This document shows positions 31,405 through 34,948 of a DNA stretch of 64,000 nucleotides, one piece after another. Both the position numbers and the translations under genes were made by a program. The notes below the pieces were generated by a model, which saw only the letters and a list, made by a program, of their open reading frames with translations, did no database searches and had not been told where the DNA came from. Numbering within the stretch: the stretch's first letter is position 1; every line of letters begins with the position of its first letter. The DNA comes from Alphaproteobacteria bacterium (GTDB taxonomy: Bacteria; Pseudomonadota; Alphaproteobacteria; Methylaequorales; Methylaequoraceae): assembly GCA_019650635.1 (NCBI GenBank), contig BOXE01000006.1:1176-65175 (forward strand), read 5' to 3'.

Positions 31405-34400
31405 ATGAAAGGAAATAGTCAACAAATAAATTTCAACGACAGTGGTTTTTTAACTAAGATCTACGCTGGCAGTACCATTGACATTGACGGATTACCAAGC
31501 TGGTTACCAAAGGCTAATTTTTCGAAAACGCAAACAGACCTTCTAATTACTTCACCAGCTGGCGATGAAATATTATTAGTAGATTTTTTTACAAACTTTG
31601 AACTTCCCTCACTCAAAACTGAAAATGGTTTATTACTTAAAGGCACTTTAATTGATACTTTATCTGGATCATTTACACCTGGACAGTATGCGCAAGCCAA
31701 TAATGCAAACGCACTTTCGATTGGAGAAGTTTCCAGTGTTACAGGAGAGGCTAAAGCAACTCGTTTGGACGGAACAACTGTAAATCTCTCAACTGGAGAT
31801 CCAGTTTTTCAGGGAGATACTGTAGAAACTACTGGGGCAGGAGCAATTGGATTAGTATTTCTTGATAAAACAACTCTCTCATTATCGGAGGGTGGAAAAA
31901 TGGTTTTAGATGAACTTGTATATGACCCAGCAACTGGAACTGGAAGTATGGCCGTTGACATGGTTGAGGGAGCTTTCAGTTTTGTGAGTGGCGAGATTGC
32001 TAAAACTGGGCCAGATGCAATGAAAGTTTCGACACCTGTCGCAACTATTGGGATAAGAGGAACTACGGTTGCAGGTAAAGCTGCAGTTGAAGGCAATGAA
32101 AACTCCTTTACACTTCTACAAGACGCTGATGGAGGAGTAGGACAAATATCTGTGAGTAATGCTGGGGGAACTCAAGTTCTAGCACAGGTTGGTGCGACTA
32201 CAAGTATAACGAGTTTTACAGCTCCACCTCCACCACCAATTATTTTAAGTGCAGCACAAATTCAAGCAAATTATGGTACAGCTTTAAATGTTTTACCACC
32301 AACTCCTGTGGTTGCTCCAACACCACAACCACCTCCACCGCCTCAAGAACAACAGCAGGAGCAAGTTCAAGAAGAGGAGTCTCAAGAGGAAGAAGAGGCA
32401 GTAGAAGAGGAGGCTGTTGAAGAGGAATTGCAAGAGGAGGGAGAAGGTCCTCCAGAAGGAGAGGAAGGAGAAGGTCCTCCAGAAGGTCCTCTAGAGAAGA
32501 AGGAGAAGGTCCTCCAGAAGGAGAAGAGGGCCCGCCAATTGGTCCTGATGGAGAACCCTAGCAGAAGAAGGACCTCCCGAAGGAGAGGCCCGCCGATTGG
32601 ACCTGATGGAGAGCCATTAGCAGAAGGAGAAGGCGGCCCACCATGGACCTGATGGAGAACCCTTACCACCCGGAGAAGGCGGTCCGCCGATTGGACACGA
32701 TGGAGAGCCACTGGCTGACGGTCCACCAATAGGACCTGATGGAGAACCCTTACCACCTGGAGATTTTGGTCCTGGAGGCCCGCCGATTGGACCGGATGGA
32801 GAGCCACTAGCTGACGGTCCACCAATAGGACCTGATGGAGAACCCCTGCCACCTGGAGATTTTGGTCCTGGTGGTCCTACACCTGAACAAGACGCAGCTG
32901 CAAGAGAGGCTTTTGAAACTGCATTGGCCGCCGGTTTATCTCCTGAAGAAGCAATGGCAGAAGCTGCTGCTGCTGCTGGAATTCCTCCACCACCAGGAGG
33001 GTTCGGAGGAGATCCTTTGTCAGCAACAGTTGGAGGTGATGAGTTTGCAGGAGGTCCTCTTGGTCCAGGCGGTCCAGGAGATTTCGGTCCGGGAGGTCCA
33101 GGAGATTTCGGTCCGGGAGGTCCAGGAGATTTTGGTCCAGGGCGGTCCAGGAGACTTTGGTCCGGGAGGTCCAGGAGATTTTGGTCCGGGTGGTCCAGGA
33201 GATTTTGGTCCTGGTGGCCCAGGAGATTTTGGTCCGGGTGGCCCAGGAGACTTTGGTCCGGGTGGCCCTGATGATTTTGGTTTTGGAGGTCCAGGAGATT
33301 TTGGTCCAGGAGGCCCAGGAGATTTTGGTCCTGGAGGTCCTGGTGGATTCGGTGATCCACTTTCATTCTTAGGACCAGCTCCTGATAATGCCGCAACTTT
33401 TGCGCCTCTAGGTGGTCCAATGGATCCTAATGATCCATTTGCTGCTTTCGGGGGGAATGCTTTTGGTGATAGCCCAATTGGTTTGCCAGGTGGTGGTGGC
33501 GGTCCTGGTGGTCCAGGAGACTTTGGTCCTGGAGGTCCTGGTGGTCCAGCAGACTTCGGTCCTGGAGGTCCTGGTGGTCCAGGAGATTTTGGACCAGGTG
33601 GAGGACCTGGAAATTTCGATTCTGGCTCAGGCGGTGATCAAGGGTCCTTTGGAACTTTTCTTCCACCAGGTTCTTTTCAACCACCTGGTACTGTTCAACA
33701 GCCAGGTGCTTATATCCCAGCTCAAGTAGGTTTTGCTCCAATTGCACCTGTTACAACAGCTCCCGTAATTGGTTCGGGTTTTTCAGCCAACGATGGTGGT
33801 GGTTTTCATGGAGGTCCTGGTGGACCTGCAGGTTTTGATCCAGGTGGTGGAGGTCCCGGTGATTTTGGTCCAGGTGGTCCAGGTGGTCCAGGTGGTCCCG
33901 GTGATTTTGGTCCGGGAGGTCCAGGAGACTTTGGTCCAGGAGGCCCTGGTGGATTTGGTCCAGCTGGCTTTGGTCCTGATGGCTTTGGTCCTGATGGCTT
34001 TGGTCCAGGAGGCTTTGGTCCAGGAGCTTTGGTCCTGGAGGTTTCGGTCCAGCGGGTTTGGTCCTGCGGGTTTTGGTCCTGGAGGTTTTGGTCCTGGAGG
34101 TTTTGGTCCTGGAGGTTTTGGTCCTGCAGGTTTTGGTCCTGCAGGTTTTGGTCCTGCAGGCTTTGATCCATATGGTCCTGATCCCCTTGGTGGAGTACCT
34201 GCTGGAGATTTTTATTATGAAGATCCAAGTATGTTTGAGAATGTTGGAGAAGCAGAAGGTTCTGAATCTGGAAGTGGAAGTGGAAGAAGTGGAAGTAGTG
34301 GAACTACATTCATAGGATCAAATAATGTTGATAACGTTGATAAATCTGCGGAAGCTACCGCATGGCGCTTTGAGGGTTACAGCGGGGCAGATGTTTTTAA

Positions 34401-34948
34401 AGGTGGATCAGGTAATGATGTTTTCTGGGGAGCAATTGGGGGTGATACTTTAACTGGTAATGCTGGGCAAGATACTTTTTATTTTGGTGATATGACTGAA
34501 GGAAATGATACAATAACGGACTTCACAGTTGGAGCTGGAGGTGATGTTTTACAGTTTTCTACTTCAGTTCAAACAAGTGCGTACGCAAGAGATGCATCGG
34601 TTGTCAATATGGTACAGCAGCCACGGTACAACTTATAATATGGGATTAAATTCAAATGTTCTTCCATCAGTTTTCAATTTTACATCACAATTTTCATCAG
34701 CAAATACAACAGCAGGCGTTAAAAATCAGCTCACAAGTTTCAAAGTTACAACTGATGGTTCAACTGCAATTTCAAGTGCAACTGATTTTATTATTGTAAC
34801 AGGAACAAGCACTAATGGTCATGTCTATGGATGGTCAGACGCGGGAAATGGTGTTATTGACAATGGAGAACTTTTTGGTTTAGCAACCTTAACTGGTGTT
34901 GACAATGATAACATTGGGGCAACAAATTTCACTTTTGGTCCAATATAA
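31405..34948 (+). CDS. Large putative T1SS substrate. It runs from an N-terminal FecR-like beta domain, through an acidic/Pro linker and Pro/Gly-rich repeat arrays, to RTX-type repeats and a C-terminal secretion region. At least 6 frame breaks sit inside the repeats as assembled.
   Basis: The N-terminus (31405-32350) reads ...IGEVSSVTGEAKATRLDGTTVNLSTGDPVFQGDTVETTGAGAIGLVFLDKTTLSLSEGGKMVLDELVYDP...FSFVSGEIAKTG...VATIGIRGT. The repeats PPIGPDGEPL, GPGGPGDF and GFGPx are readable in shifting + frames. The C-terminus reads ...GGSGNDVFWGAIGGDTLTGNAGQDTFYF... and ends ...NFTFGPI*, paralogous to the C-terminus of the next gene. Confidence 0.75.
32680..32875 (+). repeat. Tandem coding repeat with a 96-nt unit (PPIGPDGEPLADGPPIGPDGEPLPPGDFGPGG) in 2 copies, with degenerate copies upstream from about 32,450.
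   Basis: Read directly: ccgccgattggac(a/c)(c/g)gatggagagccact(g/a)gctgacggtccaccaataggacctgatggagaaccc(tta/ctg)ccacctggagattttggtcctgg. Confidence 0.8.
33061..33345 (+). repeat. Tandem 24-nt coding repeat (GPGGPGDF octapeptide), about 11 units. Shorter blocks recur at about 33,500-33,600 and 33,850-33,950.
   Basis: The unit ggtcc(a/g)gg(a/t/c)ggtccaggaga(t/c)tt(t/c) is repeated head to tail. One extra g at about 33,141 breaks the frame. Confidence 0.85.
33949..34170 (+). repeat. Tandem 15-nt coding repeat (GFGP[A/D/G] pentapeptide), about 14 units.
   Basis: Units such as ggctttggtcctgat and ggttttggtcctgga/gca are repeated. Two apparent 1-nt deletions near 34,020-34,060 break the frame. Confidence 0.85.

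Follow-up and report, generated by a model that had tools for sequence, protein, structure and literature searches.

An RTX protein of a marine alphaproteobacterium combines a putative N-terminal plug with a long acidic Pro/Gly repeat chain

In a 64,000-nucleotide stretch of alphaproteobacterial DNA (hereafter the window), a type I secretion system (T1SS) cluster includes a gene, substrate gene 1 (31405..34948, + strand), whose product joins a FecR-fold N-module, a long Pro/Gly repeat region and an RTX C-terminus. We favor, with a probability of roughly 60%, the reading that this protein is a T1SS-exported substrate that is held at the cell surface by an N-terminal plug and displays a disordered repeat chain. 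It can be described as a variant on the RTX adhesins: where the known members have a folded stalk, it carries a Pro/Gly/Phe repeat chain that is very acidic and probably unfolded. Our literature searches returned nothing specific on this family or on Pro/Gly-repeat T1SS proteins.

Stitching across eight frame switches yielded a single 1,178-aa protein (window 31405-34948, + strand), in agreement with the earlier note, which had read the locus as a single modular protein of roughly 1,180 aa. All switches are 1-2 nt indels, as judged against the repeat consensus and against L001, a single-cell genome (AG-903-D15) of the order TMED127 ('Methylaequorales') that is 95.4% identical to the window at the nucleotide level over 20.9 kb. 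With the frame of 31405 named F0, the frame path is F0 31405-32490, F2 32496-32558, F1 32558-32587, F0 32587-32643, F1 32645-33142, F2 33144-34025, F1 34028-34057, F0 34057-34623 and F1 34625-34945, and the switch sites lie near 32491-32496, 32558, 32587, 32644, 33137-33143, 34026, 34060 and 34619. The L001 ortholog (10001-13483) is an unbroken 1,160-aa ORF with a module order identical to that of the window gene, and in-frame 9-24 nt indels account for the length differences. In four further SAGs the ORF is intact at 1,057-1,114 aa, so that five independent SAGs carry the gene intact (1,057-1,160 aa); by this evidence the pieces are not unrelated ORFs and the block is not a chimera, the outcomes that the earlier note had named as refuting. 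The frame breaks in the window are sequencing/assembly indels, because gyrA (in at least six pieces), uvrA and secDF are broken likewise. As a side observation, the breaks, which the earlier note had left open, are thus window-wide and not peculiar to substrate gene 1.

The locus shows ORFs of 80-440 aa in several frames and on both strands. As anticipated in that note, the repeats raise GC, to 0.55-0.60 over them against a background of 0.25-0.30. By codon position, the repeat region has GC1 0.81, GC2 0.65 and GC3 0.19, and the GC3 of the neighbors is equal. The high GC is therefore forced by the Gly and Pro codons of a native gene, and the shared GC3 supports both the coding frame and the native origin of the repeat region. 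Horizontal transfer as the source of the high GC was ruled out, as GC3 and codon choice resemble those of the neighbors. Substrate gene 1 is genuine and native to its host, a marine alphaproteobacterium of TMED127 ('Methylaequorales'), and it is intact in relatives. Among public gene calls, none of the best 120 N-module matches exceeds 510 aa, and the tails of those inspected run out of frame. Almost everywhere the gene is mis-called, and surveys of marine exoproteins and adhesins therefore overlook it.

The cluster order is cyclase, HD protein, TolC, substrate 1, substrate 2, ABC and HlyD, and this synteny, with the cyclase and HD genes upstream of TolC-substrate-substrate-ABC-HlyD, holds at 27 of 29 clade loci. 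A dedicated TolC-family outer-membrane channel (30008..31348, +; Pfam OEP, TIGR01844) precedes substrate gene 1, and one cluster member carries the IMG name 'adhesin transport system outer membrane protein'. The paralogous substrate gene 2 (35029..37654, +) is broken by indels in the window, with about a dozen frame switches, and is intact at 884 aa in L001. It has the same N-module (75% identical) and the same C-terminal domain (33% identity, E = 3e-25), confirming the RTX/T1SS C-terminus that had been described as common to the two genes, and it has more RTX repeats and is without the long Pro/Gly block. The T1SS ABC transporter (37707..39295, +; one indel near 38549) starts 53 nt from the preceding gene and is intact at 529 aa in L001. 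It aligns to positions 140-670 (of 696) of the LssB model and 5-522 (of 544) of the PrtD model and is without an N-terminal C39 or C39-like domain. LapB/HlyB-class ABC transporters carry an N-terminal C39-like domain; in length, the 529-aa transporter is similar to the PrtD/HasD/RsaD class, whose substrates are released. The HlyD-family T1SS membrane-fusion protein (39300..40571, +) matched TIGR01843 at 288.5 bits, above cut-off. Directly upstream of the T1SS genes, co-directional and syntenic clade-wide, lie a GAF-PAS class III nucleotide cyclase gene, split by one indel at 28745, and a gene for an HD-domain protein (together 27305..29962, +). The latter protein matched PDEase_I weakly (E = 0.092) and HD at E = 0.011, below cut-off. 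This adjacent pair may have a regulatory role. LapG (PF06035), LapD, GGDEF and EAL were absent from window ORFs of at least 120 aa, a search that indel-broken ORFs could escape. The RTX C-terminus and the T1SS gene context make type I secretion of the protein well supported.

The N-module comprises a small beta domain (aa 16-90; 31450..31674, +; AF2 pLDDT about 90) and a FecR-fold beta domain (aa 107-270; 31723..32214, +), the latter recognized by Pfam FecR, Foldseek and a profile comparison with 5IX9. Pfam FecR (PF04773) matched aa 138-225 at 30.6 bits (cut-off 24) and all 42 family members, which substantiates the FecR-like domain reported earlier. The AF2 model of the N-module has pLDDT 89.7 and pTM 0.84. 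Its first 105 aa were modelled as a soluble beta domain, no Sec signal peptide or hydrophobic signal was visible on reading the N-terminus by eye, and BapA_N (BapA-prefix-like) matched weakly, being sub-threshold in 5 of 42 family members. Foldseek aligned the FecR-fold domain over ~153 columns with PupR (6OVK) and BDI_1681 (4M0N) (E about 1e-4, TM about 0.5), and the N-module with MpIBP 5IX9 ('cell surface anchoring domain') at TMt 0.78, an rmsd of 0.9 Å over 62 columns and 29% identity. A profile of the FecR-fold domain matched the 5IX9 sequence with E = 1.6e-8. By these profile and fold matches, the first ~75 residues of the FecR-fold domain are homologous to the RTX-adhesin retention module, that is, the MpIBP periplasmic plug, and the LapA/MpIBP plug is placed within the wider FecR fold. 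NF033682 (retention_LapA) scored 23 bits on the N-module, below its cut-off of 50, and the plug-like part begins at residue ~107, behind an extra domain, not at the N-terminus. In PMC5550230, 5IX9 is presented as a periplasmic plug whose size prevents passage through TolC, and the retention-module concept has been laid out in bioRxiv 10.1101/2025.09.30.679566. Based on this homology, the protein is probably retained at the surface by its N-terminal plug, and the profile match also supports the cell-proximal position proposed for the N-terminal domain in the earlier note.

Other features of the N-module bear on this function. It is the best conserved part of the family and always N-terminal in long RTX proteins. 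In other Alphaproteobacteria, the ORFs that this N-module heads range in length from about 650 to >3,600 aa, and RTX repeats are present in five of the six that were scanned. Such a position, at the head of ORFs of widely varied length and mostly with RTX repeats, is as would be expected of an anchor module. A LapG site ([T/A/P]AA[G/V]) is absent after the plug, the sole 'KAAV' sitting within a predicted strand. An 'AAAG' in the Ala-rich island was not credited as a LapG site because ~250 residues separate it from the plug and LapG was not found.

The segment behind the N-module (32215..32439, +) holds PPPPP, a short helix (aa 283-295), a Pro-rich segment and then a Gln/Glu tract (53% Glu), and is a candidate for the stretch that lies in the TolC duct. 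It is followed by EGEGPPEGE and PPIGPDGEPL repeats (32440..32878, +; 31% Pro, 30% Gly, 25% Asp+Glu, net charge -37), an Ala-rich helical island, AAAREAFETALAAGLSPEEAMAEAAAAAG (32879..32983, +), which is kept in both paralogs throughout the clade, and a Pro/Gly/Phe/Asp low-complexity region of about 400 aa (32984..34170, +). This last region consists of three GPGGPGDF-type blocks, two non-repeat Phe/Pro/Ala-rich spacers and one GFGPx block, with a composition of 41% Gly, 21% Pro, 12% Phe, 8% Asp and zero Lys/Arg. Tandem Repeats Finder recovered the GPGGPGDF repeat as a 24-nt unit × 11.7 (33060-33340), the GFGPx repeat as a 15-nt unit × 14.5 (33954-34169) and PPIGPDGEPL as a 96-nt unit × 2 (32684-32871) together with 46-58-nt units (32498-32710). 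The three kinds of repeat and the Ala-rich helix that the earlier note had listed are thus all present, the helix being conserved, and the copy-number polymorphism it had suggested looking for exists between related genomes.

Overall, with just 2 Arg and not one Lys, the ~650-aa middle carries a net charge of about -100; each 8-residue repeat contributes one Asp, and the GPDGEPL units are rich in Glu/Asp. No folded domain was detected by Pfam between aa 300 and 965. An exhaustive HMMER search for homologs of the repeat block returned only family members and convergent 8-mer repeats in unrelated eukaryote-like proteins. A collagen-like triple helix is out, as the periods are 8 and 5 residues and there are no strict Gly-X-Y triplets (period 3). 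So is a degenerate RTX beta-roll, the repeat block having no HemolysinCabind match and a period of 8, not 9. Judged from its composition, the repeat chain is probably disordered, forming a ~650-aa polyanion displayed outside the cell. The motifs themselves are conserved, not merely the composition. GPDGEPL is present in the distant relative L031, and helices analogous to the Ala-rich island occur in L030 and L031. A relative with just 46% N-module identity keeps the order acidic tract, GPDGEPL, Ala helix and GDPFGPGG, which argues for selection on the repeats.

The protein ends in an RTX nonapeptide beta-roll with a C-terminal capping/secretion-signal domain (34306..34945, +; Pfam, AF2, Foldseek). 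Pfam HemolysinCabind matched aa 989-1022 at 26.8 bits (cut-off 23), and the AF2 model (pLDDT 85.7) matched in Foldseek the beta-rolls of lipase, serralysin, AlgE and CyaA. The model is a beta-roll and cap alone, and no ligand-binding domain was found in it. The C-terminus thus models as the usual beta-roll and secretion module of an RTX protein exported by a T1SS, and the functional 'Ca-binding tip' of the earlier note was not borne out.

With the biofilm-associated RTX adhesins of LapA/MpIBP type, the protein has in common export by a T1SS, a beta-roll and secretion signal at the C-terminus, neighboring ABC/HlyD genes and a dedicated TolC, as well as acidity, Ca-dependence and a strain-variable repeat number; homology links its N-terminal beta-sandwich to the MpIBP RIN plug (5IX9) and, weakly, to NF033682. 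However, RTX adhesins have an array of Ig-like extenders, where this protein has the ~650-aa Pro/Gly/Phe/Asp low-complexity chain (Pfam and NCBIfam found no Ig, cadherin or VCBS family), and a distal ligand-binding region, which was not found here. On extenders and ligand-binding domains the protein falls outside the definition of an RTX adhesin. RTX adhesins are also typically much larger than the about 1,170 aa here, and the putative plug is here embedded in a full FecR fold after an extra ~90-aa domain. Unlike the Lap-type system, the cluster has an ABC transporter without the N-terminal C39-like domain, neither LapG/LapD (window ORFs ≥120 aa) nor a di-alanine site, and class III nucleotide cyclases, not c-di-GMP proteins, as neighbors. 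The FecR/PupR-type anti-sigma periplasmic domains (PF04773) share the above-threshold Pfam match and the fold. In contrast to these regulators, the FecR domain here is fused to a secreted RTX protein, and no N-terminal anti-sigma domain, transmembrane helix or partner ECF sigma factor or TonB-dependent transducer was present in the protein or its neighbors (window ORFs). Small RTX exoproteins (serralysins, family I.3 lipases, RsaA) share the ~530-aa ABC transporter without a C39/C39-like domain and the short beta-roll and cap, with a fold like that of the PML lipase and serralysin C-domains, but the present protein is without a catalytic or S-layer domain, starts with a plug-like module and consists by mass mostly of low-complexity repeat. 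Flagelliform spidroin GPGGX, elastin, resilin and FG-nucleoporins resemble the repeats in composition (Gly+Pro is 62% in the GPGGPGDF/GFGPx region), short Gly/Pro units and regularly spaced aromatics. There is no sequence homology to them, and the likeness to flagelliform silk, which the earlier note had stressed, is compositional only, sequence searches having found no homology outside the family; the elastic beta-spiral stalk proposed in that note stays hypothetical. The present protein is moreover strongly acidic, bacterial and T1SS-exported, and probably forms tethered single chains that are not spun or cross-linked.

In the mechanism that we propose, the adjacent ABC/HlyD/TolC would recognize the C-terminal RTX and secretion signal, and the chain would exit C-terminus first, whereupon seawater Ca2+ would fold the short beta-roll. 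The ~650-aa polyanionic Pro/Gly middle would pass easily, with no unfolding needed. The two-domain N-module, with its FecR-fold core containing the retention-module homolog, would fold on the cell side; it would be too large for the TolC duct, and translocation would therefore stall, leaving the protein tethered. The Pro-rich/acidic segment (aa 271-345) would then occupy the TolC duct, and the repeat chain would reach tens of nanometers outward. Acidic and studded with Phe, this flexible, probably disordered and possibly elastic tether or brush would carry the beta-roll at its outer tip.

Alternatively, the protein may leave the T1SS entirely and act in the medium or re-associate with the envelope, for instance as a matrix, coat, S-layer-like polymer or soluble binder, with the FecR-fold N-module as an extracellular interaction domain. 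The 529-aa transporter without an N-terminal appendix is consistent with such full release, as ABC transporters of this class export released proteases, lipases, HasA and RsaA; the missing LapG/LapD system nearby (window ORFs ≥120 aa), the sub-cut-off retention_LapA score and the presence of two tandem substrates per transporter point the same way. Against it stand the significant homology, in sequence and in fold, to the MpIBP plug, which has been characterized by experiment, the conservation and constant N-terminal position of the N-module in long RTX proteins and the cluster's own TolC gene with the IMG adhesin-transport name of a cluster member, and we regard full release as unlikely, if credible. 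That the acidic Pro/Gly/Asp repeats serve mainly as a multivalent surface binder of cations (Ca2+, trace metals, lanthanides), not as a mechanical tether, seems improbable. Such a role would fit the charge of the middle, with its Asp in each 8-residue repeat, the conservation of the motifs beyond composition and a host clade that depends on the lanthanide enzyme XoxF5 and has lanthanide-uptake genes (PMC12542740). However, nothing in the repeats is homologous to lanmodulin-type or EF-hand sites, and Pfam places RTX motifs at the C-terminus only. The same repeat order moreover recurs in L031 and L030, and the idea is purely compositional.

Two further explanations concern the gene itself. The eight switches within 3.5 kb, the dozen or so in the paralog and the truncated public calls of the family, which have out-of-frame tails also on long contigs, could suggest that the gene is truly a pseudogene, or else a contingency locus subject to phase variation, and that its frameshifts are biological. 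We hold this to be very improbable: like 1-nt indels break not only gyrA, uvrA and secDF but also the ABC transporter and cyclase genes, the indels fall in 2-4 nt runs and not in long slippery tracts, and the SAGs with intact ORFs are Illumina-based. As to an assembly artefact, the chance that the repeats are collapsed or join unrelated genes in a chimera is close to negligible. Several short-read SAG contigs do end (L002, L003, L013) or start (L023, L024) within the repeats, but six independent assemblies agree both on the order of the modules and on the TolC and paralog genes to either side, codon usage is native and the assemblies differ by whole repeat units.

Retention by the plug remains the reading that we prefer; the retention-module scaffold known from RTX adhesins would then be able to bear an unstructured polymer in place of folded extenders. 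The matching SAGs are labelled TMED127 by GTDB (PMC12542740 Table S3), a group ('Methylaequorales') that makes up to several percent of surface-ocean metagenome reads and has streamlined genomes of ~1.5 Mb (PMC12542740). The retention of two large repeat-protein genes, a dedicated T1SS and linked cyclases, all syntenic, in such streamlined genomes argues that the surface function is important to this free-living oligotroph. TMED127 xoxF transcripts are found almost exclusively in free-living size fractions (PMC12542740), and a classical attachment role is therefore not obvious. It is a doubtful proposition that the protein represents a previously undescribed class of RTX surface proteins, with a conserved, Phe-studded, elastomer-like polyanionic Pro/Gly chain in place of the folded Ig-like stalk, a FecR-type plug as its tether through TolC, control by cAMP/cGMP-type cyclases instead of c-di-GMP/LapDG, and a hydrated brush as its product. 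If true, an abundant marine methylotroph with a free-living habit would be surrounded by this brush, which could shield the cell or gather multivalent cations, among them the lanthanides that its methanol dehydrogenase needs.

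Three-frame translation of positions 31405-34948 gives a single protein-like reading with 8 frame hops, and its nine frame segments, once stitched, amount to 1,178 aa, which bears out the one modular protein of ~1,180 aa that the earlier note had read across the frame breaks. Each hop in this gene, substrate 1, lies within a 2-4 nt run and is 1-2 bases off the local repeat consensus (for example, CCCTAGCA for CCCTTAGCA, GGAGCTTTGG for GGAGGCTTTGG, and CCACCATGGACC for CCACCAATTGGACC). Other genes in the window are likewise broken; gyrA (13521-16156) is in at least 6 pieces, and uvrA (10323-12858, minus strand) and secDF (6074-8261) are, like gyrA, fragmented into short ORFs. 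Essential genes are split in this manner throughout window 5000-16200. Frequent 1-nt indel errors run through the whole window, so that any ORF-based reading needs a reference, such as the single-cell genome (SAG) AG-903-D15.

A scan of GTDB genomes yielded 74 related loci, the closest being L001 (contig CACCYL010000002.1), from SAG AG-903-D15, which shares 95.4% nucleotide identity with window 21401-42339. L001 contains an unbroken 1,160-aa substrate 1 ORF with a module order identical to that of the window, along with an intact downstream paralog (substrate 2, 884 aa) and an intact ABC transporter (529 aa). The gaps between window and L001 are of two classes. Gaps of 1-2 nt explain all frame breaks in substrate 1, as well as those in the cyclase and ABC transporter genes, while the second class comprises in-frame indels of 3-24 nt that are mostly located within the repeats, many being whole repeat units. 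Intact substrate 1 ORFs of 1,057-1,114 aa are also present in 4 further SAGs. The intact SAG ORFs and the two gap classes show that substrate 1 is a real gene and that its frame breaks are sequencing errors.

Tandem Repeats Finder recovered all three Pro/Gly repeat classes named in the earlier note: a 24-nt unit in 11.7 copies encoding GPGGPGDF, a 15-nt unit in 14.5 copies encoding GFGPx and 46-96-nt units encoding PPIGPDGEPL. As the earlier note had also stated, the repeats lift local GC above the genome background, with peaks of 0.55-0.60 versus 0.25-0.30, and spurious ORFs are found here on both strands. Codon-position GC indicates a native gene whose GC peak comes from its Gly and Pro codons, as repeat-region GC3 (0.19) equals that of the TolC, ABC, and HlyD genes and only GC1 (0.81) and GC2 (0.65) are high. 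The copy-number polymorphism that the earlier note proposed to look for is evident, as unit counts differ between intact ORFs: the genes compared harbor 21, 18, 19, 14, 12, and 7 GGPGDF-type units and 13, 11, 9, 7, 10, and 3 GFGPx units. Repeat number is therefore polymorphic among related genomes.

The FecR-like domain and RTX C-terminus proposed at the outset both correspond to Pfam matches above threshold (FecR, aa 138-225; RTX repeats, aa 989-1022). With 42 family members as input, AlphaFold2 modelled aa 1-300 (pLDDT 89.7, pTM 0.84) as two beta domains, the first small (aa 16-90) and the second larger (aa 107-270), followed by a helix (aa 283-295). Foldseek comparison of this N-terminal module with the PDB returned the FecR-type anti-sigma periplasmic domains of PupR (6OVK) and BDI_1681 (4M0N/4M0H), with E ~1e-4 and TM ~0.5, and the "cell surface anchoring domain" (5IX9) from the ice-binding RTX adhesin of Marinomonas (62 columns, rmsd 0.9 Å, TM 0.78, 29% identity). 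The family profile also matches the 5IX9 sequence directly (E = 1.6e-8; profile 106-181 on chain residues 12-87). 5IX9 is the RIN domain, reported to be a periplasmic beta-sandwich that is too large for TolC and holds the adhesin on the cell (PMC5550230). Both paralogs match the NCBIfam retention_LapA model weakly, at 23-24 bits versus a cut-off of 50. The C-terminal ~215 aa also gave a good model (pLDDT 85.7), and its matches are the beta-rolls and caps found in T1SS lipases, serralysins, AlgE R-modules and CyaA block V.

The middle ~650 residues contain 33% Gly, 21% Pro, 8% Phe, 16% Asp+Glu and no Lys, for a net charge of ~-100. A Pro-rich linker is followed by a Gln/Glu tract, EGEGPPEGE and PPIGPDGEPL repeats, an Ala-rich helical island, GPGGPGDF blocks interrupted by 2 non-repeat Phe/Pro/Ala spacers, and GFGPx repeats. 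The two-helix island (~32 aa; window 32879-32983, L001 11472-11600 and the equivalent paralog position; motif AAREAF.TAL.AG.SPEEAMAEAAAA) is strongly kept in both paralogs and clade-wide, amid fast-changing low-complexity sequence. It could serve in oligomerisation or docking.

Substrate 1 lies in a co-directional cluster with short gaps, in the order GAF-PAS class III cyclase, HD-domain protein, TolC, substrate 1, substrate 2, ABC and HlyD, which is syntenic in 27 of 29 clade loci. The paralogs share 75% identity in the N-terminal module and, consistent with the C-terminal domain that the earlier note saw in the next gene, 33% identity in that domain (E = 3e-25). Residues ~207-297 are almost identical between them (window 32023-32295 versus 35746-36018), with the remaining N-terminal module at ~65-70%. 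The pattern suggests that the distal half of the FecR fold, together with the PPPPP-helix segment, has been kept alike by gene conversion or is very strongly constrained. No N-terminal C39 or C39-like domain was found in the cluster ABC transporter, nor were LapG, LapD, GGDEF or EAL domains found in window ORFs of at least 120 aa. The opposite strand downstream of HlyD (window 40600-42777, L001 19440-20897) carries a gene for a DUF1538 membrane protein and also a short ORF that lacks annotation (L001 19440-19796, 118 aa). The DUF1538 gene shows clade-wide synteny and is located between this cluster and a second export locus, on the minus strand (43441-52803). The latter encodes a TolC-like protein, in pieces (51478-52803), a Pro/Gly/Asp/Met repeat protein with "GPDGPPPGDMGPGGM" ~7 times and an out-of-frame tail (50395-51360), an ABC transporter that includes a Peptidase_C39 domain (47994-50165), a HlyD whose N-terminus is a cNMP-binding domain (46263-47987), a split CHASE2 + class III cyclase (43896-46266) and a stand-alone cNMP-binding protein (43441-43881).

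The N-terminal module heads ORFs of ~840-1,160 aa in the TMED127 clade and of ~650 to >3,600 aa in Rhodospirillales and other alphaproteobacterial MAGs. Outside TMED127, 5 of 6 scanned ORFs headed by the module contain RTX repeats, one also with FG-GAP repeats. L031, a distant locus with only 46% identity in the module, has GPDGEPL-type repeats, then the Ala-rich helix, then GDPFGPGG repeats, as in the TMED127 clade, and L030 has a shorter version of this series; the retained order shows that the repeat motifs themselves are conserved, beyond mere composition. In L031 and another distant locus, L058, a CHASE2 or GAF-PAS class III cyclase adjoins the gene, with appendix-less ABC and HlyD, and a cyclase is within 10 kb of the gene in 6 of 45 distant loci. 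Features of note lie at L031 6528-7553 and 17266-19692 and at L058 7304-9748 and 17351-18900: a CHASE2 + class III cyclase beside the FecR-headed RTX gene and its T1SS in both loci, an inverse-autotransporter beta-domain gene just upstream in L031, and MotA/ExbB-like and MotB/OmpA-like genes just downstream of HlyD in L058.

In an exhaustive HMMER search, the repeat block matched just 61 representatives out of 1.84 billion and no homologs outside the family, the other matches being convergent 8-residue repeats in unrelated proteins. Two eukaryote-like examples, P0225 (aa 940-1100, GP(R/Q)GPGDF) and P0222 (aa 300-380, GPSGSGDY in an EGF/NIDO/VWD protein), have the periodicity of GPGGPGDF. In databases the gene appears systematically in fragments: the best 120 N-terminal module matches among 5.8 billion proteins are all 510 aa or shorter, C-terminal matches in public proteins are at most 337 aa, some SAG contigs stop inside the repeats, and several public proteins, among them P0001, P0123 and P0124, start or end with out-of-frame repeat translation. 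These three and P0125 were predicted on contigs of 0.15-1.6 Mb, and their out-of-frame ends show that other long-contig assemblies have indel errors of this kind in the GC-rich block too.

There is good support for secretion of substrate 1 via the adjacent T1SS. The N-terminal module probably retains it at the surface, because the module is homologous to a plug that has been characterised by experiment and, in a family of long RTX proteins, forms the conserved head; the below-threshold retention_LapA match, the appendix-less transporter class and the absence of a visible release system argue for caution. RTX adhesins have extenders and a ligand-binding region, neither of which is found in substrate 1, and thus the functional element at the surface is likely to be the Pro/Gly/Phe/Asp chain itself. 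This chain may be a flexible polyanionic tether or brush, and it could plausibly be elastic, cohesive (through Phe "stickers") or cation-binding; the earlier analogy to flagelliform silk holds for composition and goes no further. Overall, what the earlier note observed is borne out, and its interpretation holds in part: substrate 1 is an RTX-adhesin-like T1SS substrate with a low-complexity extender and a putative plug embedded in a FecR fold.

The matching SAGs and MAGs (AG-903-D15, AG-349-G20, AG-359-F09, AG-892-F10, MED715, MED657 and TMED13) belong to GTDB order TMED127, for which the name "Methylaequorales" is proposed, the closest being genus GCA-2691245 (PMC12542740). Members of this clade are described as free-living, obligately methylotrophic and dependent on lanthanides, with genomes of ~1.5 Mb and a habitat in (sub)tropical surface waters (PMC12542740). 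Substrate 1 is conserved across this abundant marine clade of streamlined, free-living bacteria and is nearly invisible in present annotations.
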